Assembly (NCBI GenBank): GCA_963735245.1
Contig: CAVTKI010000003.1
Location: 78,794 to 142,793, forward strand
DNA: 64,000 bases
Reading direction: 5' to 3'
DNA from: an uncultured Actinomycetota bacterium
GTDB taxonomy: Bacteria > Actinomycetota > Actinomycetes > Mycobacteriales > Mycobacteriaceae
Both the position numbers and the translations under genes were made by a program. The notes under the pieces are model-generated. The model saw nothing but the letters and a program-made list of their open reading frames with translations, searched no databases and was not told where the DNA came from. Positions 6,056 to 20,381 of this stretch are shown one piece after another; positions within the stretch are counted from its first letter, which is position 1; every line of letters begins with the position of its first letter.

Positions 6056-6129
6056 CGCGCGAGCGTACCCCGGTTACTCGTCGGTAAACGACAACTCCGA
6101 GAAGTTGTCTACCAGTGTCTCGACGTCGA

Positions 6130-6145
6130 TGTGACCTGTATCACA
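6130..6145. promoter_or_regulatory. CRP (cAMP receptor protein) binding site
   Basis: Perfect TGTGA-cctgta-TCACA in the divergent lipC / acyl-CoA dehydrogenase intergenic region. Confidence 0.75.
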
Positions 6146-6177
6146 GACACCGGGGCTCTCGGTGGTTAGGTCGAGCC

Positions 6178-8366
6178 GTGGGCAAATCTGCGCTAGCGAT
6201 CACCGACGACCACCGCGACCTCGCCGATGCCGCGAACGGCCAGCTCAGCAGGTTGAACAGCCGTGCCGCCGCCAGGGCGACGCTCGACGCAGGACCCGAG
6301 GACGGCGCCAATCACCCCGCGCGCCTCTGGTCGGCCGCCGCCGACGTCGGCTGGCAGGGTCTGGCGATCGCCGAGGAATACGGCGGCTCGGGGTTCGGCC
6401 TGTCCGAGTTGGCCGTGGTGCTGGAGGCACAGGGCCGCGAACTGTGCCCGGGCCCGTTCCTGCCCACCGTTGCGGCCGCGGTGGTGATCGACCGCTGTGC
6501 ACCCGATTCGGTTCGGGCGCAACTACTTCCGGGACTGGCCGACGGCAGCGTGGTGGGCGCACTCGGCTTGTCGGGCAGCGTCGTCGTCGGCTCGGACCTG
6601 GTTGCCACCGGTGAATGCGCTGCCGTGCTCGGCGCGCCGGATGCGGCGGTGCTGGCGGTCGTGGCCGGCGACGACGTCGTGCTGGTCGAGGCGGACGCCG
6701 ACGGCGTCACCATCACCGCGCTGCCGTCGCTGGACACCACCCGCAGCATCGGGTCGGTGGCGCTGCGCAACGTCGCCGTGACCGAGGACCGCGTGCTGCG
6801 GGGTGCAGCGCGGCGCGCCCGCACCGTGTTCCGCATCCTGGCGTCCGCGGAGGCCGTCGGAATCAGTTGGGCCGCATTGGACATGGCCGTGGAGTACGCC
6901 AAGGTCCGCGAGCAGTTCGGCCGCACCATCGGCACGTTCCAGGCGGTCAAGCACCACGCCGCGAACATGTTGGTCGACGCCGAGCAGACCACGGCGGCCA
7001 CCTGGGACGCCGCAAGGGCCGACGACCTGGACAGCGCCTGGTTCGCGGGTGCCGTCGCGGCCTCGCACGCGATCAGAACCCAGATACTCAACGCGCAGTG
7101 CAACATTCAGCTACACGGCGGCATCGGGTTCACCTGGGAACACGACGCGCACCTGTACCTGCGGCGGGCCCGCACGCTGGCGGCCGTCATGGCCGACGGC
7201 GCCGACCCCCTGATCGACGTCGTCGACGGCCAGCGCAGCGGTCAGGCTCACGGCGCCTCGTTCACGCTGCCCGACGGCGCCGAGGAGTACCGCACCGCCG
7301 CGCGCGACGCCGTCGCCACGTGGCGATCGCTGCCCGCGGAGGAGCGGCGCGACTTCCTGGTCGACTCCGGGTATCTGGTGCCGCACTGGCCGCGGCCGTG
7401 GGGAAGGGCCGCGGGCGTCCTCGAGCAGTTGGTGATCGAGGAGGAGTTCGCTGAGCAAGCGTCGGGATCGCGCCCGACATGGGCATCACGGGCTGGGTGA
7501 CGCTGACGATCGCGCAGGCGGGCAACGACGACCAGCGTGAGCGCTGGGTCGAGCCCGTGCTGCGTGGCCAGGTGATGTGGTGCCAGCTGTTCTCCGAGCC
7601 GGGTGCGGGATCGGACGCGGCCGCCGTCCGCACGGCCGCCAAGAAGGTCGACGGCGGCTGGCGGGTCACCGGACAGAAGGTGTGGACCAGCCTGGCGCAC
7701 CTGTGCCAGTGGGGTCTGGCGACGGTCCGCACCGATCCCGACGCGCCCAAGCACGCCGGCGTGACGATGATGGCCATCGACATGAGCGCGCCAGGGGTGA
7801 CGGTGAATCCTCTGCGGGGCATGACCGGGCACGCCCACTTCAACGAGGTGTTCTTCGATGACGTGTTCGTCCCCGATTCCGACGTCGTGGGTGACGTGAA
7901 CCGGGGCTGGCTGGTCGCCCGCGCGACATTGGGCAACGAACGGATCTCCATCGGCGGAGGATCGTCGGCGCCGACCGGTTTCACCGTCGACGACGTGGTC
8001 AAGCTGCTCGACAGCGCACCGGCAGACACGGCCGCCAGCTACCTCCGGCGGGCGGGTGAGGTGATCGCAGAAGGGCACACGTTGCGGTTGCTCAACCTGC
8101 GCCGGGTGAGCCGGGCCATCGCGGGCGCCGAGCCCGGACCCGAGGGCAACGTGACCAAACTGCTGCTCGCCGAGCAGTCGCAGCACCTCACCGAACTCGG
8201 TATGGACCTTGCCGGGGCGGCCGCCGTCACCGGACAGACGCCACAGCTGGCAACCACCTACTTCGGCAACCGCGCGATGACGATCGCGGGCGGCACGTCG
8301 GAGATCACCCGCAACACGATCGCCGAACGGATTCTCGGCCTCCCCCGTGACCCGCTTCTCAAGTAA
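6178..8366 (+). CDS. Two-domain acyl-CoA dehydrogenase (FadE6/FadE22/FadE34 type), frameshift near 7470
   Basis: REQFGRTIGTFQAVKH, HGGIGFTWEH, WCQLFSEPGAGSD, IAGGTSEI motifs. Confidence 0.9.
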
Positions 8367-8463
8367 CGGGGCGACAACGGCTGGCATAACAATGAAGCCA
8401 CGCAGGAGGCGCGGCGCGCCAGATTGTGACAAGCTTCAAGGTCGTGGCTAGCAAACCCGGAGC

Positions 8464-9852
8464 ATGGGCCGGGTCACCATCGTCGAGCGGCGGCGAGGAC
8501 ACCGTCGACCTCGCGTCGGTACTCGCCGCGCTCGAACGCGAGCGGACTCCCCTCCGCCGAACGTTGCCAGGCCACCCGGTGCGAACCGGCGAGGCTTGCT
8601 GACGCTGGCCCTGATCGCCCTGATTCTCGGCGCGATCATCCAGCTCGCCACGTCGACGCCCGAACGTGAGCGGAGTGCCTCCGGCGAGACCCGCGCCGAC
8701 GTGGTCTTCACCAATGCGAAGAGCGGCACCTGCCTGAACTGGCCCGTCGACGAACCGGACAAACCGTCGTTCGTGTGGTGCACGGACGACCACGTCTTCG
8801 AGGTCGCGAAGCCGGTCGACATGAACAACTTCGGTGAGCCGTGTCAGCTGGCGGTTCGCCACTATCTCGGTGCCAAGTACGACCCGAGCAGCAGGTTCAC
8901 CATCGGCGTCATCTGGCCGGGGGACTCCGTCGGGACGCCCTCGGGTGGCGGAAACCTGCTGTGCGGACTGCAGCTGCTCGGCCCGGGAGGCCGACCGATT
9001 CCGTTCAAGGGGAAGATCGCCGACCTCGACCAGTCCAGGGTGTGGCCGGTCGGTACGTGTCTCGGCATCGACGAGGCGTCCCGCCGGTCGACCGACGTGC
9101 CCGCCGAGTGTTCCTCGCCGCACGCCTTGGAGGTGGCCGGCGCCGTGAACCTGGCCACGCGGTTCCCTGGCGGATTCCCCGCCGAGCCCGAGCAGCAGGC
9201 GTTCCTGGCCGACGGGTGCGCCCAGGCGGCGGACGCCTACCTCGCCCCACGGAAGCTGCGCGAGGCCGGTCTGGCGGTCAACTACGAGACGATCTCACCG
9301 GCGAGTTGGGCGGCGGGCAGCCGCCAGGTGTCGTGCGACGTCGGTACCCGACGCGCGGACGGGTGGGCGCCGATGGTCGGCAGCGTCAAGCAGCCGCCCA
9401 CCGACCTCCCCGTCGTGAAGACCCCGGCGCCCGCACCCCCGACCGAGGCACCTCCGACCTTCGAGGACGCCCCCACGATCGCCGCCCGGCCGCCGGAAAC
9501 CGTCGCCACCGAGACTCAGCCGCCGCCGCGTCGCCGCCACGCCGTCGCACCCACGTCCGCGCCGACGTCCGAGCCGACTTCTGCGCCGACTTCTGCGCCA
9601 ACGTCCGCGCCGACGTCCGAGCCCACCTCCAGCGCCACCGCCCGAGCCCACCCCCGAGCCGCCCACCACCACCGCCACGTCACCACCAGCGCTCGGTCCG
9701 CCGCCAGGACCGCCACCCTCGGGCCCGCCGCCTGGACCGCCGCCGCCGAGCAGCGAGAGTGCCGAACCTGCGCCAGGGGTCTTCGAGATCCCCGGCATGG
9801 CACCCATCACCTTGCCCTGGCTCGCACCACCCCCACCGCCGCCAGCCGGTAG
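8464..9852 (+). CDS. Septum-formation family membrane protein with Pro/Thr-rich tail
   Basis: One TM segment, two Cys-containing repeats (GTCL...C...H..EV), Pro-rich C-terminus with indels. Confidence 0.7.
   Translation: MGRVTIVERRRGHRRPRVGTRRARTRADSPPPNVARPPGANRRGLLTLALIALILGAIIQLATSTPERERSASGETRADVVFTNAKSGTCLNWPVDEPDKPSFVWCTDDHVFEVAKPVDMNNFGEPCQLAVRHYLGAKYDPSSRFTIGVIWPGDSVGTPSGGGNLLCGLQLLGPGGRPIPFKGKIADLDQSRVWPVGTCLGIDEASRRSTDVPAECSSPHALEVAGAVNLATRFPGGFPAEPEQQAFLADGCAQAADAYLAPRKLREAGLAVNYETISPASWAAGSRQVSCDVGTRRADGWAPMVGSVKQPPTDLPVVKTPAPAPPTEAPPTFEDAPTIAARPPETVATETQPPPRRRHAVAPTSAPTSEPTSAPTSAPTSAPTSEPTSSATARAHPRAAHHHRHVTTSARSAARTATLGPAAWTAAAEQRECRTCARGLRDPRHGTHHLALARTTPTAASR
9550..9630 (+). 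repeat. 12-bp coding tandem repeat (PTSA/PTSE, about 7 units)
   Basis: ccgacgtccgcg / ccgacttctgcg / ccgacgtccgag units. Confidence 0.85.
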
Positions 9853-9853
9853 T

Positions 9854-10164
9854 GAGGGGGGGGGGGAGCAGAAGACAGGAGGAGGGGGAGAGGCAGCCAG
9901 AGCGGCCGACGGGCGAGCAGCAAAGCGGAGGGAGAGGCAGGGGCAGCAGGAACAGAGCACGCAGAAGACGAGACGGCAGCGCGCCGCAGCGGAGCGCGCC
10001 GGGCCAGCGCGCAGAACTCGACGGGACAGCGCAGCAAGCGCGCGCGAGGCAGCCAGCAGCCGGCGCGCGCAGAAGCGAAGACAGACGGCAAACGCGAACG
10101 GCACGCGCAGCGCCAGCGCGACGGCACGGCGGGAGCGCGCACGCACGCCCGCAGCAGACACGAG
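9854..10164. other. Nearly T-free low-complexity block (probable consensus artefact)
   Basis: Only one T (position 10018) in 311 nt; begins with a poly-G run; replaces the 3' end of the MBL gene. Confidence 0.7.
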
Positions 10165-10996
10165 TTTCGGATGCTGCCGTGATGGGGCAGCTTGAACACG
10201 GCGAGGTCGACCGGCGGGCCGCCGGGATAGCGGTCCAGCGCGCCGACGAGAACTTGAGGAAACGCATCACCGGCGAGTAGGAGGCGATGGCCGCCGTGCT
10301 CGAGGATCACCGCGAGCTGCTGCCGTTGGCCACCGAAGAGTCGCTGCCCGGCGGATCGTCGGCCTCCCCCAACGTGTCCGCGGGGGCCTGGTCGCCGAGC
10401 GTATCGACCGGCTGCAGACGCTTCTGGTTCGCCAGCCGGGCCAACGCCGTGGCCGTGTCGCCGGTGGCGAATCCCTCCTTCTCGACAATCGCGGTCCAGC
10501 GCGCGCCAAGCGTTTTCAACTCTTTGGCGGTCGGAGAGACCACGGTCAGCGTGGCGTCGCCGCCGAGCTTCGCCGTCGGTAGGTCACCCTCGGCCGGGAC
10601 GTAGATGACCTTGCCCCCGAACGCGGCGTTCCACGGCTGTTCCGACGAAGTCAGCACTGCCTGCAAGTATTCGCCTTCGCGTTCGTCGAGCAGGTCGCCC
10701 TCGTCGAGGGCGGCGTTGATCTGCTGCGTGCCGTTGAACCACACGTCGCCGAAACTGACGCCCAGGTGCGGTTCCTGCAGAAGACGCAGCACCCCTTCGA
10801 TGTGATCGGCATCGACGTGGGTGACGATCAACAGTTCGAAGTGCCGGTCGTCCGCGTCGAGCTGTTCGATCCTGTTCCGCAGATGCTTATAGCTGTAATA
10901 CGGACCCCCATCGATCAGGATGCGGCGGACCGGCACGCCATATTCGATCCACAGGCAGTCACCATGACCGGCGGGCAACATCTCCAACGACAGCAT
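10160..10996 (-). CDS. MBL-fold metallo-hydrolase (ComEC/Avs1a-like); 3' end lost in the T-free block
   Basis: LPAGHGDC, LIDGGP, THVDADHIEG (HxDxDH), NGSS, LLAGDA, KLPHHGS motifs across ORFs 10307..10996 and 9807..10310. Confidence 0.85.
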
Positions 10997-11005
10997 CCTG
11001 CTCCC

Positions 11006-13436
11006 TTATATGGTGAGTCGATAATCCGCGTCGCCGAACGCATTCAGTGCCATCGCCATCACCGAACCCTGCGCGAGCCCGGCTGCCCAGGGCCTGGCGC
11101 AGCAGCTCGCCGAGCGGCCTGCCTCCTGCGGCCTCCTTGACCGCGGCGACAGACCGGCGGTCACCGGACCGGCTTGCCGGCCCAGCACCGTGGATGTCGT
11201 GCCGACGACGACCGATGCGTTCTGTTGTCGGAACTCGCGGGCGAACGTCGCCTGCTCCAATCCTTCCGACGAGGTGACGCAGCCGAACAGGAATGCCACC
11301 GGTCCTGGGATGCCCGGTGGCGCGTCGACCACTTCGGGGAAGACGCGCGTCACGTAGAGGTCGCTCTCCGTGCCGATCTGCATGCTCCACTCGCCTCGGT
11401 CCTCGTCAAACCTGGCGTGGCCCAGCACGATCAGAAGGTCCGGCTGCTTGGCGTTGATGATCTCTTCCCAGCTGCGCCAGTCGGTGATCGGACCGTCGAA
11501 CGGGATCCCGGCCGCCTCGAGCGCTCGCGCAATCCGGTGCGACGGCGGGATGTAGGTATCCGGAGCGCCGCGCGGTGCCTTGTCTGCCTTCGCGCTCAGC
11601 GCGAACACTGCTCGCTTCAGCTGGACAGGGGTTCGACCGGCGATGTCGCCTCGGCGCAAGCGCGCCTGGCGCGGGTCTCCGCCGCGCCAACAGCATTGTG
11701 ACGTTCAATGACTCGGTTGAGACCCCAAAAACCCAACGGGCACAGCGTGCTGCGGTTATCGGCTCCAGCAGCGTGGCACCGTGGGCATCGACCGTCGGCG
11801 ATGCCGTCGGTCCACTGGGTGCACAGCTCGAAATCGTCGGGCGGGCTTGGCAGCTCATACACGAACTCGAAAGGAAGCTCAGGCGCAGCGTCGCTGAGCC
11901 GCAGAACCTGCAGGAACCGCTCCCCCGTCACCGCCTCGCGCTGGACCTGATTGGGGAACAGCGACCGCAACAACAGACTGCCCTGCACCGCAAGGTATTT
12001 CAGCAGAGACCGGGCCTGAGGACCGTTCAAGTCGGGCGCCTCGTCGAGCTCGACCGCCATCTCGCCGAGCTTGGCGGCGATCCGGTTGCTCGCGTGCGAG
12101 ACTCATTTTCACGAGGCTCGATCAGAAAGTCGCCGCACTCCGCGTACACGGCGGGGTTGGTGTCCAACTCGATGGTCACACCGCCGGCCGACTGTTCGTC
12201 GAGCCGGGCCAACGGGTGAAATTCGCCGTCGATGACGAGGCTGGGCCGACCGCCGGGGACGCCGTCGGCGTCGATCACCTGGCGGTCAGAATGGCGCTCT
12301 GGACCGCTCGGGATTGGTGCAACACCGTGATGCGCCCCCGCCATTGGTCGGCGGCGGGGTCGACGTCGATCGGGAATGGCACATCGGCGCTCGGGCCGTT
12401 CGCGGGCAATTGCAAAGGCCGCCGGACGATTTCGCCCACATCGGGCTTGACGATGACCTCCAGGTCCCGCGTCCGTCGGGTCCCGGCCGGCCCAACTGCC
12501 TCTCATCGAGCGCGACAGTCGGCCCCAGCCGCGTCGGGCCAAGCGATCCGATCCCACGAGCAGCACCATCGGTTGGTTGCGCAAGAATCCGTACCCGATC
12601 CGCGGGCCGGGGGCACCGTCGCGCTGACGGCGGTGCAGCGCCACCTGAAGAAATCGGCTGACCCCGGCAGGACCGGCACGGCGCCGGTCGAGCCCGTCGG
12701 TGATCGCTTGATCACCCCTCAGCGCAGCAGTGACCAGCGCGCCGGCGCGGGCAGCCATCGGGTCGTCGCGCGCATCGTCATTGCCGACTCGCCTGCGAGA
12801 TCACGCAGCGCCGCCTCGACTTCGCGCGACGATCGGTACACACCCCGGGACGGAAAGCGATCCACGCCACGCGGAACCCCCCGCGCGGCGCGAGTCACCG
12901 GCGGTGGTGGCTCCATCACCTCCAGCTCAACCTCGGGGGCGTCGATCGTCGCCAGCCCCGCCAGGAAGGCGTACCGCGGCGAAACCGCAAGGGCGTCCGG
13001 ATCGCCCACCAGCGTATGTGGGCCGCACCGGACCAGGCCCTCCTCTACGGTGGCCCCCTCCGCCAGCTGCCGAACGAACAGTGACAATCGGTCGGCACTG
13101 AACGCCGCGATCACATAGCCGACCGCGCCCATGGCGTGGGCCGCGTCCACCGCCGCCGCTGGCGTCAACCTCCTCGGCGGAATGCCCGAGCATCACAACC
13201 AGGTTGGCCGAGAAGGTGACCGCCGCACCAAGCAGCTCAAGCTCCGACGTCGTCTGCGCAATCGCGATATCGCAATCGAGCCCATCCACACCCAAGCGGA
13301 TCCTTCTCGAGCAGCACACCGGCAGGGGCAGCGACGACGTCGTCGAGCACTGCGCCGCCGACGACCCCGGCGGCAGTCCAACGCGAAGCGGGAACCGCCA
13401 GTCCGGGTCGCTGTCGAAGGTCGGCTCGTCGGTCAT
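11006..13436 (-). CDS. Large CHAT (caspase-HetF) domain protease, reconstructed over several frameshifts
   Basis: C-terminal LPFEFVY, CPLGFWGLNRVIE, LLIVLGH (His), VAFLFGC (Cys), FAREF...ASVVVGT, ending AFGDADYRL; upstream beta-rich segment; pieces in ORFs 12927..13436, 12719..13168, 12027..12758, 11617..12060, 11006..11659. Confidence 0.65.
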
Positions 13437-13804
13437 CGTGCTCCTCGACCGCGCGCGACGGGACCGACCTCGACTGCACCGCAGCGGATCGTGGTCATGC
13501 GGCCCCCTTGCTCTACCCGCAGTTCTACAGGCCCGCGGACAGACCCGGCGATGAATCAGGAGACTTCACCCCGAATTGCTCACCCCCACAGCACATGGCG
13601 GCCCAAACGGTGCACAGCCCGCCACACCATCGGCAGCACCGGTCGCGGGCGCTGCCCTGAGTCATGTCACTGAAGCCGCGACGCGCAACGAACGATCCCC
13701 ATTATTGGCATCACCGTTGCGGCATTGTCCGATACTTGAACCATGCACGACTGCGCCCAAACCACCGGGCGGGCAACTTCATCGACTCACGGGGGGAACC
13801 GGCC

Positions 13805-14802
13805 ATGCGTAAAGCACTGATCGTTGGCATCGATTACTACGACCGCATCCCAGCCCTCGCGGGTTGTGTCAACGACGCAAGCGCGGTGAAATCCGTTCTC
13901 GAGCGCCACGCAGACGGCACCACGAACTTCACCACTCCGGAAATCCTGCTCGGCGCGACAGCCGACTCAGCCGTAACGAAACAAGAGCTGAAGGAGGCGG
14001 TGAGGCAGCTGTTCTACGACGATGCCGACATCGCGCTGTTGTACTTCGCCGGTCACGGCTATACCGAAGACACCGGCGGGTTTCTGTGCGCGAGCGATTG
14101 CGCGACGGGCGACGATGGACTCCCGCTGGCCGAAGTCATGACGTTTGCCAACAAGTCGCAGGCGAAGAACAAGGTGATCGTTCTCGACAGCTGCCACAGC
14201 GGCATCGCCGGGGATAGTCCGATTCACGACAAGTTTGCCGAAGTCGCCGAAGGGCATGACGATCTTGAGCGCCTCGGGAGCAAACCAGTATGCGCTGGAA
14301 GTTGCCGAAGGCGGCGCCGGCGTATTCAGACGAGCCTGTTCGTCCATGCGCTTCAGGGCGCGGCGGCCAATCTCGTGGGAGACGTTACGCCCGGCAGCGT
14401 CTACTCACACATCGATCAGTCTCTCGGGTCCTTGGTCGCAACGGCCCGTGTTCAAGACGAACGTCAAGAGATTCGTGTCGCTCAGACGGGCGCAGCCGCC
14501 GATTCCTCTGGATCATCTACGAGCCGTCACGAAATACTTCCCCACGCCAGGTCCATCAGCTGCCTCTCGACCCCTCGTACGAGCCGGAGCGCTCACCCGA
14601 TCAGCTGGCCAACTCGTCGATTCCGCCACCGGATCCCGCCAAGACTGCCGTCTTTGCGATCTTGCAGGCGCAGGCACTCGTCAACATGGTCCGCCCGGTC
14701 GGCGCACTCCACATGTGGCACGCCGCGATGCAGAGCAAGGCGTGCGAGTTAACCGTCCTGGGCCAACACTATTGGAATCTCGTTGACAAGGGCCTGCTGT
14801 AG
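13805..14802 (+). CDS. Caspase family (peptidase C14) protein with C-terminal extension, frameshifted
   Basis: [28 protein letters not shown] (His), VLDSCHSG (Cys); G-rich RBS; C-terminus LDPSYEPE...[30 protein letters not shown]. Confidence 0.88.
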
Positions 14803-14803
14803 C

Positions 14804-15097
14804 GTGCCCGACATACCGGAAGGACCTGCCGAGTGCGCTGCGCGAGGGATCGCTGATCGAAGCTCTTGCAGCTGTCGAGACACAGAGCGGTGGTCGCACT
14901 GGCAGCGCTATATGCACGCGCAATGTCAAAGTCAAGACGATGGTTCGCTAACGATTCCCGCCGACCTCGTGATGCGGTGGACGACGCAGATGTCGACGCC
15001 TTATTCGGGGTTGTCGGAGACCGAAAAAGAAAGTGATCGCGAGCAAGTACGCCGCTATCTATCGACAATCGAGTCGGCCGTGACTCCCCCGCGGTGA
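14804..15097 (+). CDS. Small RyR-domain-like protein
   Basis: GTG start 2 nt after the caspase stop; (LAAVE)..ERWSHWQRY...TPYSGLSETEKESDREQV resembles the RyR repeat (LA..EHERW...PY..LSE.EK..DR). Confidence 0.6.
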   Translation: MPDIPEGPAECAARGIADRSSCSCRDTERWSHWQRYMHAQCQSQDDGSLTIPADLVMRWTTQMSTPYSGLSETEKESDREQVRRYLSTIESAVTPPR

Positions 15098-15155
15098 TGA
15101 CCATCTGATTTGGTCACGGCCCTCGCTTCACCGTCCACGGGTACACCGGACTGCA

Positions 15156-17620
15156 TCAATTGCGCATCGAACCGTCGCCTATGCGAGCACCGGCAGACGG
15201 CTTGTCGTAGTCGACGTCTGGCGAAATCCACTCTCGCCACTGATCGTGGCTGAGGTTGTCGGTCAGCTTGGCGCACAGAACGTCTCGCCACGCGGCAGGT
15301 TCAGATGGGGGCGCCGGCCAAAGGCGCGCGTTGCCGTCTTCACCGCCGGAAACAATCTGACGTCCGTCCGGGCTGAAGGCGACACTGTTTACGTTCCCCT
15401 GGACCAAGAAGGGTTCGCCGAGCGGCGTGCGGGTTTCGTTCTGCCACAACCAAATCGAGCAGTCGGCGAGGAGGGGATGCGCTCCGGACGTCCGGGCGGC
15501 GCTGGCGCTGGCCAACCGGCGCCCATCCGGGCTGAACGCCACACCGTTCACCGCCGCGGCGTGGCCGGTGAGCGGCTCGCCGAGAGCTGGCCGGTGTCGG
15601 CGTTCCACAGCCGCACCGTGCGGTCGGCGCTGGCGCTGGCCAGCCGGCGCCCGTCGGGGCTGAACGCCACACCGTGCACCGCCGCGGCGTGGCCGGTGAG
15701 CGGCTCGCCGATCGACTGTCCGGTGTCGGCGTCCCACAGCCGCACGGTCGCGGTCGAGCGCTGGCGCTGGCCAGCCGGCGCCCGTCGGGGCTGAACGCCA
15801 CACCGAGCACGGGGCCGGTGTGGCCGGTGAGCTGCCCGGTCATCGGCGTTCCACAGCCCGCACCTTGCCGTCGCCGCAGCTGCCGCCGGCCAGGCGGTGC
15901 CCGTCGGGGCTGAACGCCACACTGAACACCGTCGCCGGTGTGCCCGGTCAGCGGCTGCCCGAGCGGCTGGCCGGTGTCGGCGTCCACAGTCGCACCGTCT
16001 CGTCAGCGCTGGCGGTGGCCAGCCGATGTCCGTCGGGGCTGAACGCCACGGCCGAACACCGCGTCGGTGTGGCCGACCAGCGGGGCGCCGAGCGGTTGGC
16101 CGGTGTCGGCGTTCCACAACCGCACCGTGCTGTCATCACTGGCGCTGGCCAGGCGGTGCCCGTCGGGGCTGAACGCCACGCCGAGCACGACGGCGGTGTG
16201 GCCGGTCGAGCAGCGCCGAGCGGTTGGCCGGTGTCGGCGTTCCACAACCGCGCCGTGCTGTCGTGCTGGCAGTGGCCAAGCGGCGTCCATCAGGGCTGAA
16301 CGCCACACTGGTCACGCCTCGGTGTGGCCGGTCACGACGGCGCCGACCGGTTGGCCGGTGTCGGCGTCCCACAACCGCACGGTGGCATCCGACCCGCGCG
16401 GGCCAGGCGGTGCCCGTCGGGGCTGAACGCCACACCGTTGACACCGCCCGTTATGGCCCGTCAGCGGTGCGCCGATCGGCCGACCGGTGTCGGCATCCCA
16501 AAGTCGTACAGATCCGTCGGCCGATGACCGCTGACGAGCCGTTGCCCGTCCGGGCTGAACGCCACCCCGGAAGCGGCACGTGCGCGTCAATGGGAGCGAA
16601 GGATTGGCCGGTGTCCGCGTCCACAGCCGAAGCGTCCATCCGCTAGTACTAGCCAGCCGGTGCCCGTCGGGGCTGAACGCCACACCGGCCACCGCGGAGG
16701 TGTGACCGGTGATGATCTTGACGGTGCGCATCCGTTGAATCACCGTGTTGTAAGAACGCGCTGGCCACAGCGCATCGTCGGGGGCGGCGAGGCGTGCGCG
16801 CAGCGAGGATCTGCTGCAAGGCGCGCGCGTCCCCGCCCGGCTGGCCCCGCCAGCATGCCCTTCGCTTCGGCGATCAGCTTCTGCGCGAGTGGCGACCCGC
16901 AGATTGGTGCTCTGCTCTGGTTGCGTTGGCGGATGGCTTCTTGTCGCTGGCCATCTGCGATGCGCCGTTGCGATCAGCCAACCGCTGCCGCCGACGAGCG
17001 CACCACCGTCAGCACCACCAGACCGGCTATCGCGGCGCGGCGTAGCCGCGGAATGCGGCGTTGTTCGCGCAGGTCTTCGCTCGCCAGTTCGGATTTCGGT
17101 TTGCCGTGGATCGGGGCGGCCAGGTCGGTGACCTTCTCCCGGAACAACGGCGCGTCCGGATCCCAGGGGCGTCGTCGCTGACGTCGACGTAGAGCGGCTC
17201 GGCCGGCAGCGCACCGGGCTGCGTCAGCACCGGCAGCGCCGCGTCCGAGCTGCCCGGGTCAAACCGTCCTGCCGCTTCGTCCCATACGAGGCACCCACTG
17301 GCCACGACGAACAGCACGTGGTCGGATCCGCGGCGCTCCAACCAGTGCGCGACTTCCCTGTTGACCCACTTGGAGGCGACCGCGCTGGGCGACTGCACCA
17401 CGACCAGGTACCGCGATCGATCCAGGGCTTCGGTGACCTTGCCCCACAGATCGGGGCTGGCCGTCAGATCGGTGGAGTCACGAAACACCCGCAGCGCCGG
17501 CGGCTGGCCAAACCGCCTGCCGATGCGTTGCAGACCGCGCTGGATCCCGTGAGCGACCGCTCGATCATCGTGGTCGTAGGAGATGAAGGCGTCGTACGGA
17601 AACGACTGTCCGCGCGTCAC
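15156..17620 (-). CDS. TIR domain - transmembrane - WD40 repeat protein, heavily frameshifted
   Basis: YDAFISY...VFRDSTDL...[25 protein letters not shown] (TIR with WxxxE); hydrophobic segment near 17000; many GHT..V..VAFSPDG..LASAS.D.TVRLW repeats; ends [21 protein letters not shown]. Confidence 0.85.
15320..16720 (-). repeat. WD40-coding tandem repeats (~125-130 bp period, about 11 copies)
   Basis: Recurrent ggggctgaacgccac (VAFSP on the minus strand) near 15371, 15530, 15658, 15789, 15908, 16037, 16167, 16294, 16421, 16553, 16672. Confidence 0.85.
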
Positions 17621-17765
17621 GACCGCACTGGAAAAGAAAGAGCATCGTCGTCGGGCGTCGAGGAGAGCCGCTGCGCGACGCGCAGATCCGACGACGTCAA
17701 TTGGCGCAAGAAGCCGCCGACCTGCACAAACTCCGTGTACAGTCCGATCATGTGGGGGCACAGAC

Positions 17766-20355
17766 ATGGCCGGTGGTGCAACGCGACAGCTGAGTTCGCG
17801 CGCATCCACGCGGCACTGGTCGGTGACAACAAAACCTCGGGCATCGTCCTCGATCGGTGATGCCGGAGTGGGCAAGACGACTCTGGCACGGCTCGTCACC
17901 CAGTCACTCCCAAGCAGGGTGCAGTGGGTAGCTGGCACGGAATCGGCCCGCACCATCCCGCTCGGCGTCTTTGCACACCTGGTCAGCTCCGCGACATCGC
18001 GTGACCCGATCGCGTTCCTCGCTGCCGCCCGCGAAACGCTGCTTGCGGAGCGCGACTCGATCGTCGGTGTCGACGACGCCCACATGCTCGACCAGCTCTC
18101 TGCCACATTGCTGCACCAACTCGCCATCGACGGGTCGGTGCGGATCGTGGCGACCGTGCGTCGTGGGGAGACCCTTCCCGATGCGATTACCTCGCTGTGG
18201 AAGGACGGCTACCTCGAACTGCTGAATCTGCAACCGTTCACGAAGGCCCAGTGCGTCACCTTGATCGAAGATGCCCTCGGTGGACGGGTCGAGGGGCTCA
18301 GCGCCGACCTGATGTGGGACGCCTCCGCAGGCAACGCACTCTATGTCCGGCACCTCGTCGAAGGTGCGCTGGAAACGGGCGCGCTCAGACAGGTTCGCGG
18401 TGTATGGCAATTGCGCGGCCGCACCTCTGTGACCTCCGAGCTGGCCTCTCTGCTCGATGCTCGCGTCGAAGCGCTGCCTGACCCGGTCATGCACGTTCTG
18501 CGGCTGGTGACCTTTTGCGAACCGCTCGACCTCGACGTCCTTACCGAGCATGGCCGGCGCTGACGCGGTCGAACAGGCCGAAGCCCGCGGTCTGATTCGC
18601 CTTGCCGAAGAACGCGACGGTATCGACGTACGCTTCACCCACCCGCTGTTCGGCGAAGCGATCAGACGGCGGCTCGGGATCGCGGCGGCGCGGCGGGTGC
18701 GAGGCGAGCTTGCGCGCGCCCTGCAGCGCCAACCGATCACCGCGCCAACGCAGCGGATGCGGCTGGCCGAACTCACCCTCGACAGCGATGTAGTCCCCGA
18801 CGTCGACCTGCTCGTCGGCGCCGCGCGTGACGCCATCGCCCTCAGCAACATCGCTCTCGGCGAACGGTTGTCGCGCGCGGCGGTCAACCGCGGCGCCGGC
18901 CTGAGGGGCAGCGAACTTCTGGGTCGCGCCCTCCTGTGGCAGGGCAATGCCGCGGAGGCCGAAGACGTGTTCTCCGCCTTCGATCCCGATCAGCTCGGTG
19001 AGATCGATCTGGTGCGTTGGGGTACCGCGCGCATCGCCAATCTGCACTGGGCCATGGGCGACGCCGACGCCGCCGACGAAGTGATCAACCTGCTGCGCAG
19101 CCGGGTCGCCGACCCCATGCTCGGTCTGGTCGTGGACGGACTCGCTGCGGCGTCGCTGGTGTTCGAAAACCGACTGGTCGAGGCCGCCGACCTCGCCGGC
19201 CGCGTCCTTGCCGACCCCGCAGCGCCTCCCTCCGCGGTGCAGTGGGCGGTCTTCGGCGGTGGACTCGCCCTCGGGCTGATGGGACGCGGGAACGAGGTCG
19301 CCGCGATCGCCGAACGAGGGCGCGCCTTGGACGACCAGGCTGAAGGGCTGCTGCGGTACCTGATGGCGTTCGGGGAGATCCGGGCATTGGTCGCCACGGG
19401 CGATTTCGCCGTCGCCGAGCAGCGGTCCGCCGACATCGTCCGGGTGTTCCTCCCCAGGCCAGTATCTGGCGTGGGGAATGGCCAACGTGCTGGCCGGCAC
19501 CGTGGAGTTGGCGCGCGGACAGTTTCCCGCGACCGTGTCGCGAATGGAGCAGACGGTTGCGGCTCTGACCTCTGAGTCCGCCGCTTCGTGGAGCTTCCCT
19601 GCCCGACTGCTTCTCGCGCAGGCCTACTCGGCTCTCGGCCGCACCGACGCCGGCAGCAAGATGATCGCCGAACTGAAGATGCGCTACGCCCGGCACGTCG
19701 CGGTGTTTCATCCTCAACTTCTTGATCGCTGAATCATGGCTTGCGGCTGCCCTTGGCAATGTCAGCGGCGCCGCCGATCTTGCGCTGGAAGCTGCGCGTT
19801 CGGCCCGACTCTCCGGTCAACGGGCCATCGAATTGCTCGCCCATCACGACGCCGCCCGCTTCGGGGACCGCACCGGTCTGGAGGCCTTCGCCGACGTGGC
19901 TGCCACCATCGATGGTGCACTGGCGCGCACGCAGCATGCCTATGCCCGTGCGCTCATCGACCGCGATGCCACTGCGCTCTATGACGCCGCCAACGCGTTC
20001 TCCGACATCGGCGCGCTCCTGTACGCCGCCGACGCCGCCGCCCAAGCCGCAGTGCTGTTCGAGTCAGCCGAACGAGCGCAGGCATCACGTCGACTCCGCC
20101 GCCGTTGCTGACCGCATCGCCACCGCGTGTGGCGGAATACAGACTCCCGCACTGAGTTTGGCAGCCAATCCGCTGCCGTTGAGTACGCGGGAACGCGAGA
20201 TCGCCAACCTCGCTGCGCAAGGTCTGTCCAACCGCGACATCGCCGAACGCCTCACGGTCTCCCTCCGCACGGTGGAGGGCCACATCTACCGCGCCTGCAT
20301 CAAGCTCGACGTCACCGACCGGGAAGAGCTGGCCCGCGTCATCCGAAAGACCTGA
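17766..20355 (+). CDS. AAA ATPase - LuxR HTH transcriptional regulator, frameshifted
   Basis: GDAGVGKTT P-loop, VGVDDAHMLD Walker B, AGNALY, FTHPL, C-terminal LSTREREIA.LAAQGLSNRDIA.RL..S.RTVEGH. Confidence 0.9.
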
Positions 20356-20381
20356 TCGTCCGCCGCCCGGCGCGTGACGGT

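Follow-up and report, generated by a model that had tools for sequence, protein, structure and literature searches.

A variable slot in a mycobacterial genome carrying a probable Canu-like protease-nuclease pair alongside a type IV Thoeris caspase and its RyR-like partner

We analyzed a 64,000-nucleotide stretch of DNA (the window: contig CAVTKI010000003.1 of assembly GCA_963735245.1, positions 78,794 to 142,793) from an uncultured member of the Mycobacteriaceae, in which a cluster of six genes encodes a metallo-beta-lactamase (MBL)-fold protein, a CHAT-fold protease, a caspase-like protease, a small RyR-like protein, a membrane-spanning TIR-WD40 protein and an AAA-LuxR regulator. The source assembly (G000, in which the contig is C3) spans 7.07 Mb and is 86% complete. 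An initial annotation made from the letters alone had read the cluster as a defence or conflict island, a view that is supported here; the six genes, their order and orientation, and the His/Cys motifs of both proteases were likewise confirmed through open reading frames, Pfam and alignments, although all six genes are frameshifted in the window. The tight spacing it had noted within the two gene pairs also agrees with the coordinates: the CHAT stop codon at 11006-11008 is followed by 9 nucleotides and then the MBL ATG at 10996, and the caspase TAG at 14800-14802 by a single nucleotide and then the GTG of the RyR-like gene at 14804.

Table. Features of the insert, in window coordinates.
Feature	Position	Strand	Remarks
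Septum_form-domain membrane protein, Pro/Thr tail	8464..9852	+	Pfam PF13845, E 2e-51; absent at the G015 empty site
Purine-rich stretch replacing the last 87 codons of the MBL gene	9830..10163		3 T in 334 bases
Gated MBL-fold pro-nuclease (CanC-like, predicted)	10164..10996	-	Residues 1-278 of 365 readable; one frameshift near 10316
Protease, about 813 aa	11006..13436	-	At least 5 frame breaks; intact copy P0122 maps across 13436-11009
Site of lost short TIR gene	13596..13790	+	176 unrelated bases, then a 17-18-base tail
Type IV Thoeris caspase-like effector with C-terminal domain	13805..14802	+	330 aa when intact; five extra bases in window
RyR-repeat-like protein, about 96 aa	14804..15097	+	Coupled to caspase; three extra bases in window
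TIR - single hydrophobic segment - WD40 propeller protein	15156..17650 (approximate)	-	Many frame breaks
AAA-LuxR transcription regulator	17760..20355 (start approximate)	+	Pfam AAA_22, GerE; common in genus

The cluster sits in a variable insert. In one relative (G015) the site is empty, with window position 8365 joined to 20386 and about 10 bases between them, and in another (G028) 8365 is joined to 24375. Comparison with G015 gives an insert of about 12 kb (about 8367-20380) that includes the Septum_form gene; the insert proposed initially is therefore real but larger than the 10 kb assigned to it. Its surroundings had been described as lipid-metabolic, which holds for the left flank, an acyl-CoA dehydrogenase gene, but not for the right, a phosphonate uptake and utilisation operon. 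Guanine-cytosine content stays near background across the insert and reaches its minimum over the caspase (0.62 versus about 0.68). No tRNA or tmRNA genes were found in the window, no integrase reading frame was seen in 5000-26000, and no boundary repeats were evident by eye, no repeat search having been run.

The damaged reading frames could mean that the cluster has decayed in the source strain, the frameshifts being true mutations and no working system being expressed. All of its genes are broken, a short TIR gene is missing, true deletions occur at this site in related strains, and the caspase and TIR-STAND-WD40 genes of a second genome with a similar cluster (G126) are broken as well. We nevertheless regard decay as highly unlikely. 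Over 13440-15500 the window carries extra bases at 8 of 8 indel sites relative to X4 and X5, contigs from two different studies that are about 98% identical to it, with no listed indel in the opposite direction; removal of these bases restores a caspase of 330 codons and a RyR-like gene of 96 codons, both of which are in frame in X4 and X5. Both the MBL (P0001, 365 aa, 99%) and its protease neighbour (P0122, 813 aa) also have intact, near-identical counterparts on record, the longest contig being 142,345 bases for each. Because such copies exist elsewhere, the frameshifts probably arose in assembly. Beyond the island, the neighbouring acyl-CoA dehydrogenase gene (6115-8366) is likewise broken into two frames, which fits the same cause. 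A more localized defect, the purine-rich stretch at 9830-10163, is likely long-read consensus junk: its 3 T compare with a window median of 51, it is the sole such stretch in the window and unique in the genome, and it overwrites the 3' end of the MBL gene, where P0001 reads on to 365 aa, together with the end of Septum_form. The border of the MBL gene initially placed at 10160 consequently falls away, the last 87 codons having been replaced by these 334 bases.

The protease is built of a small alpha/beta N-terminal domain, an Ig-like domain (approximately residues 261-391) and a C-terminal domain whose predicted structure has a CHAT/separase-type fold. The model of P0122 superposes on separase with Z 20.4 (root-mean-square deviation 4.2 over 304 aligned residues) and on the TPR-CHAT protease Csx29 with Z 19.9 (3.7 over 291), with a middling match for the Ig-like domain (Z approximately 8). 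A model of the C-terminal domain of the G126 protease gives Z 16.9, 16.5 and 15.6 against separase, Csx29 and SAVED-CHAT, respectively. His677 and Cys723 do not vary in any of the 31 aligned rows. The CHAT label of the initial annotation is borne out by this fold, with Pfam CHAT matching neither the window pieces nor the intact orthologues of Mycobacterium sp. JS623 and G126; the Pfam family was found in 3 of the scanned relatives. Pfam likewise gave no Peptidase_C14 match, the intact protein was not named by Pfam, PADLOC or NCBIfam, and a PDB sequence search with the G126 protein returned no matches. The N-terminal parts of CHAT partners in other loci (L053, L054, L063, L074 and others) vary, including an HU-like DNA-binding domain, HEAT repeats and a second CHAT-like stretch, a variety that points to swappable sensors.

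The adjoining MBL gene falls slightly under the cut-off for Pfam Lactamase_B_2 (E 6e-6). A PADLOC run, suggested as a check in the initial annotation, matched this protein (LmuA-MBL, 4e-58; Avs1a, 9e-38) but not its CHAT partner. The nearest solved relative is the ComEC nuclease domain, and the THVDADH motif, D244 and H272-H273 are invariant across 58 MBL rows and also readable in the window. The family carries a Leu-Gly motif in each of two loops, the first of which aligns by eye with Gly104 of KaeCanC; in the window's subclade, site 1 reads Leu-Asp and site 2 holds Thr-Leu-Gly twice. Pairing with a protease was counted in the best 80 of 171 metagenome loci wherever at least 400 bases lay upstream (n = 68; 12 too short). 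A protease gene precedes the MBL gene in 56 of these 68 loci, and no protease does so in the remaining 12. Within the genus whose named members are Mycobacterium, to which all genus-wide counts refer, the MBL family occurs in 8 of 399 genomes: four have a CHAT-type partner, three a C14 caspase as in CanABC, and one is unresolved. The CHAT-linked and C14-linked proteins are not reliably separated in the MBL tree because of its long branches.

This arrangement is closely reminiscent of Canu, in which, according to excerpts of Tuck et al. (PMC12799240), a nuclease encoded downstream of a caspase-family protease is gated by two insertions with a conserved Gly, mutation of which abolishes defence. 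Excerpts of Evans et al. (PMC12642450) similarly place a caspase-like clade (clade 2) among protease-MBL modules. Like Canu, the window has its MBL nuclease gene immediately after a gene for a caspase-fold His/Cys protease, the protease has an Ig-like domain, and the MBL family shows two putative gating loops that keep a Gly, a likeness blurred by the Asp of the window's own subclade; canonical CanABC-like loci with the same MBL family exist in the genus (G154, G129 and G149). The window differs in that CanA is a 390-aa C14 caspase, whereas the window protease is of the separase/CHAT type, belongs to a family of roughly 800-1100 aa and has its Ig-like domain ahead of the catalytic one; in that there is no CanB gene, nothing lying between the protease and MBL genes; and in that the mycobacterial MBL subclade has Asp in place of Gly at site 1. 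The CanABC prototype, with its C14/MALT1-type protease and CanB, was rejected on the lack of a Peptidase_C14 match, the separase/TPR-CHAT folds and the absence of an intervening gene. Because the same excerpts of PMC12799240 describe Canu loci as variable, these differences exclude the prototype subtype only, and the CHAT-MBL pair is a Canu variant. CHAT-type loci may be drawn as "caspase" in the figures of that paper; we found no description of a CHAT-protease/MBL pair or a CHAT-type Canu in the literature searched, whose figures, supplements and subscription papers may list such loci.

Other systems hold homologous gated MBLs, as the PADLOC and NCBIfam matches indicate, namely AVAST type 1 (Avs1a/b), HamMAB and the Lamassu trypsin-MBL type, but the window protease lacks a trypsin domain and has no fused STAND, helicase or SMC partner. 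Membership of AVAST type 1 was rejected: the NCBIfam Avs1a score is 185 bits versus a cut-off of 420, and the partner is CHAT-fold with no trypsin-STAND. Canu-related loci seen elsewhere in the genus include two that are CanABC-like with a C14 caspase (L225 in G154, and L228 in G129, the latter also with a patatin) and a Canu-type locus (L227 in G149) with a 708-aa C14 caspase, a second MBL, a DUF2235 gene and an AAA-LuxR gene 84% identical to that of the window. By analogy with Canu and trypsin-MBL biochemistry, we infer that an unknown infection cue would act on the N-terminal or Ig-like part of the CHAT protease, that its His/Cys site would cut the two loops blocking the MBL active site, and that the freed DNase would destroy DNA and abort the infection. 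If this holds, the CHAT/separase-type enzymes that stand where Canu has CanA would add another protease family to those that gate this nuclease. The Gly-to-Asp change at site 1, for its part, gives a direct handle on co-evolved specificity.

On the opposite strand, the caspase (Pfam Peptidase_C14, 3.5e-16), with His84 and Cys130 readable in the window, is a type IV Thoeris effector. It is 82% identical to the JS623 caspase and, in a quick tree, nests among caspases linked to short TIR genes; by eye it matches PsCaspase, as given in part of the PMC13243611 supplement, along its length, a hand count giving about 78 identities in the first 150 residues. A PDB sequence search with the caspase of a relative gave no matches. 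Among the best 80 of 194 genome loci, a short TIR gene stands directly upstream of the caspase in 72 of 80 and a RyR-like gene downstream in 67 of 77, L138 having one as well. In these relatives the short TIR is 123 aa with Glu79 and the caspase carries Cys130; the corresponding residues of the tested Pseudomonas system are E79 and C129. The caspase family is found in 6 of 399 genomes of the genus, and wider genome draws yielded 6 caspase loci (5 in 361 and 1 in 371 genomes), three of them apparently repeats of known loci.

The missing short TIR is the main departure from this pattern. Bases 13773-13790 match the 3' ends of short-TIR genes over 17-18 bases at the expected place (blastn, best E 0.003). 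A short-TIR DNA profile (nhmmer) did not detect this tail and gave E 0.66 for a 5' remnant in JS623, and therefore both remnants are leads only. No short TIR was matched in the window or the rest of the 86%-complete assembly. Where the window has 176 bases, X4 and X5 have 452-500 other letters, a size that fits a 372-base gene plus promoter. The likeness to type IV Thoeris as excerpted from Rousset et al. (bioRxiv 10.1101/2024.10.24.620036) extends to the same caspase family, the position of the catalytic cysteine (130 versus 129) and the same C-terminal domain. Under the search rule given in those excerpts, a caspase separated by no more than one gene from a TIR_2 or ThsB, the locus would count as type IV, since the TIR-WD40 protein is encoded one gene from the window caspase. 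The window nonetheless differs in lacking the short TIR gene, in having as its nearest TIR a membrane-spanning TIR-WD40 protein on the opposite strand, and in a RyR-like third gene coupled to the caspase, RyR being unmentioned in the main text of the preprint as sampled. An accessory gene after a type IV caspase has a parallel in Liu-DS6, a Pycsar and type IV Thoeris operon for which excerpts of PMC13069673 report synergy without cross-activation and a dispensable accessory gene; there, as here, type IV Thoeris lies beside another defence system, but the partner is Pycsar and the hosts are Gammaproteobacteria. By analogy with the tested systems, a short TIR would make the N7 form of cyclic ADP-ribose (N7-cADPR), which would switch on the caspase and lead to broad protein cutting. 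As the short TIR is gone, the caspase arm is most likely silent in the source strain.

The RyR-like gene, which often overlaps the caspase stop codon in relatives, belongs to a family in which the His-x-x-Trp motif and the Asp of an EKxxDR motif are invariant in 51 of 51 rows. Matches to Pfam RyR fall under the cut-off (E 0.003-0.03; 0.03 for the window), the best profile match in the PDB has E 0.0015 with 12 of the 14 listed matches being RyR-type and the motifs aligning with RyR repeats, and the Atlas match scores 0.93 to a cluster where 14% carry RyR. In excerpts describing RyDEP (PMC13232231) and RyR Tad (10.64898/2026.06.04.730250), phage RyR-domain proteins cleave or sequester 2'-/3'-cADPR by way of a His-x-x-Trp and a later Asp. 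These ligand-binding and catalytic residues are the ones invariant in the family described here, which differs in being host-encoded within a defence operon, in a His-to-Asp spacing of 51 versus 42, and in having no clear match for the phosphate-binding second His. Neither source mentions type IV Thoeris in the passages searched, and no description of a RyR gene in a Thoeris or N7-cADPR context was found in the partial texts that made up the literature searched, whose supplements may list such loci. A predicted complex of caspase and RyR-like protein scored 0.00, giving no answer and being uninformative either way.

These features suggest that the RyR-like protein is likely a host-side brake that would bind or hydrolyse N7-cADPR and so set a threshold for the caspase, binding being likelier than cleavage because the N7-cADPR bond differs from that of 2'-/3'-cADPR. 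That most loci on this branch of type IV Thoeris carry the gene suggests an off-switch for the signal on the host side. The wider family is extensive, with 3,729 clusters at E <=1e-10, and viral members stand apart from such operons, with no caspase nearby in 34 of 35 loci and a TIR in 0 of 35 (2.5-kb flanks). Standalone phage members were seen in Microcystis phage Ma-LMM01 (gp044; L260 2971-3213) and in viral loci L261-L295, those of Microcystis phages being 41-44% identical. The phage proteins are candidate anti-Thoeris IV sponges or hydrolases, and the thousands of RyR-like relatives, many of them standalone in phages, are candidate anti-Thoeris IV proteins.

The TIR-WD40 protein (Pfam TIR_2, 5e-11, and WD40, with 11 repeat cores) retains a readable TIR Glu in the window, and its TIR is 70% identical to that of JS623 and 82% to that of G211. 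In intact relatives, TIR and propeller are separated by basic residues and then a single hydrophobic segment, a sequence arrangement that suggests a TIR inside and a propeller outside the cell. The family occurs in 40 of 400 genomes of the genus, often in multiple copies, and none of the 21 loci fetched, several on short contigs, has a caspase, RyR, CHAT or MBL gene nearby. An output for mycobacterial TIR-WD40 proteins was not described in the literature searched.

The position of this protein raises the idea of a sensor swap, whereby the membrane-spanning TIR-WD40 protein would replace the short TIR as the signal source of the caspase, with RyR as brake and the CHAT-MBL pair separate. Among caspase loci with 3.5 kb of flank on both sides, a TIR-WD40 gene adjoins 3 of 6 without a short TIR and 0 of 54 with one (Fisher p 6e-4, a post hoc contrast among kin that are not independent). 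The three neighbours lie upstream on the same strand (L141) or convergently (L181, L185), and a quick tree, weakly supported at its inner nodes, separates these loci and the window/JS623 pair onto distinct branches. G126 has a similar layout made of unrelated genes, the TIR-WD40 protein is the sole TIR domain found in the 86%-complete source assembly and keeps its Glu, and X5, which lacks the TIR part of TIR-WD40, has a TIR-sized stretch upstream of its caspase. This adjacency is diluted, however, by two further caspase-RyR loci without a short TIR and with no TIR nearby, which bring the tally to 3 of 10 and leave 7 of 10 without such a neighbour. TIR-WD40 genes mostly occur in genomes without such a caspase (40 of 400 versus 6 of 399), and in the window, JS623, L181 and L185 the gene is transcribed towards, not with, the caspase. 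The short-TIR profile, moreover, does not match the distant TIR of TIR-WD40, which may therefore make a different product or none. We consider the swap, of which the literature searched contains no description, doubtful. An extended version, in which Actinobacteria have repeatedly rewired type IV Thoeris so that a TLR-shaped TIR-WD40 protein senses an envelope cue and fires the caspase through N7-cADPR, a host RyR protein exchanged with phages in one direction or the other clears the signal, and the CHAT-gated DNase is an independent and possibly synergistic kill switch, is in our judgement also unlikely. The window locus and the intact JS623 plasmid copy provide a ready read-out for the abundant mycobacterial TIR-WD40 proteins.

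Two orphan caspase-RyR pairs (L304 4131-6886 and L306 8489-9790) have as neighbours a transcription-activator-like gene and a 489-aa gene without a name, no TIR being found within about 5 kb. Near several caspases without a short TIR are membrane proteins with an unnamed C-terminal Rossmann-like "LRSF" domain (L177 9365-11350, L182 3868-5718 and L029 18303-20813). This domain may be another TIR-like sensor.

The pattern of gene combinations bears on whether the cluster works as one pathway. The initial annotation had offered two options, a sensor-protease-MBL cascade or a cluster of independent modules, and the counts favour the second: caspase, RyR-like and short TIR genes are found at 0 of 80 MBL loci (27 of which have at least 5 kb upstream), and MBL or CHAT genes at 0 of 80 caspase loci (58 with 5 kb on both sides). 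Near-identical strains also lose parts separately. In X5, window position 16562 runs to 17683, removing the TIR and membrane part of TIR-WD40, and in X4, 10184 is joined to 13503. A single cascade, in which WD40-TIR senses, the caspase and CHAT protease relay and the MBL kills, would draw on the gene order shared by the window and JS623 and on the similar mix in G126, but it sits poorly with these counts and losses and with the tested type IV caspase, which in the excerpts of Rousset et al. cuts broadly after Arg and is not a relay. We hold it to be extremely unlikely. Two systems published in 2025 account for most of the locus, which is therefore not a new cascade, and calling the combination undescribed finds no support, its CHAT-MBL pair matching the Canu kind and its caspase being a type IV Thoeris effector.

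We accordingly think it probable that the insert is a variable slot of separate, likely anti-phage modules: a Canu-variant CHAT-MBL pair; a type IV Thoeris caspase with a RyR-like damper, its short TIR missing; and TIR-WD40 and AAA-LuxR genes that mostly occur elsewhere without either. Several observations weigh against this view. Homologues do co-occur elsewhere, since plasmid pMYCSM01 of JS623 carries MBL, CHAT, an extra TPR gene, caspase, RyR-like and TIR-WD40 genes in window order, all intact and with no short TIR, the five shared genes being 65-76% identical at the DNA level. Co-location of CHAT and MBL recurs in G126 (L130 3435-17654), which holds DUF2235, CHAT, MBL, a SLOG-like gene, a caspase, TIR-nSTAND1-WD40 and a 391-aa membrane protein also present in JS623; there the caspase is a different one, distant (35%) and EcCaspase-like, which has no short TIR but DUF5995 in its position and is a second case of such a caspase beside a large TIR receptor. 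This recurrence is qualified by the fact that the window, JS623 and G126 MBLs form one tight clade. The X4 joint depends on just 21 letters on one side, and the short TIR of X4 and X5 is a presumption from size and place. At the level of the single proteins, site 1 of the window MBL is Asp where the family and KaeCanC have Gly, the RyR sequence match is weak, and no residue clearly corresponds to the second His of RyDEP (H100). Beside the cluster on the JS623 plasmid lie more TIR, TIR-STAND-WD40 and WD40 genes in a row (L029 3931-12044).

The two outermost genes of the insert stand apart from these modules. The AAA-LuxR regulator was considered as a system part and rejected, occurring apart from the cluster and not beside that of JS623; DNA matches of 64-72% were found in G011, G016, G030 and G149, the first three without the cluster and the last near the C14-type Canu locus. 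The Septum_form gene, whose 3' end is garbled, lies within the insert and belongs to neither defence module.

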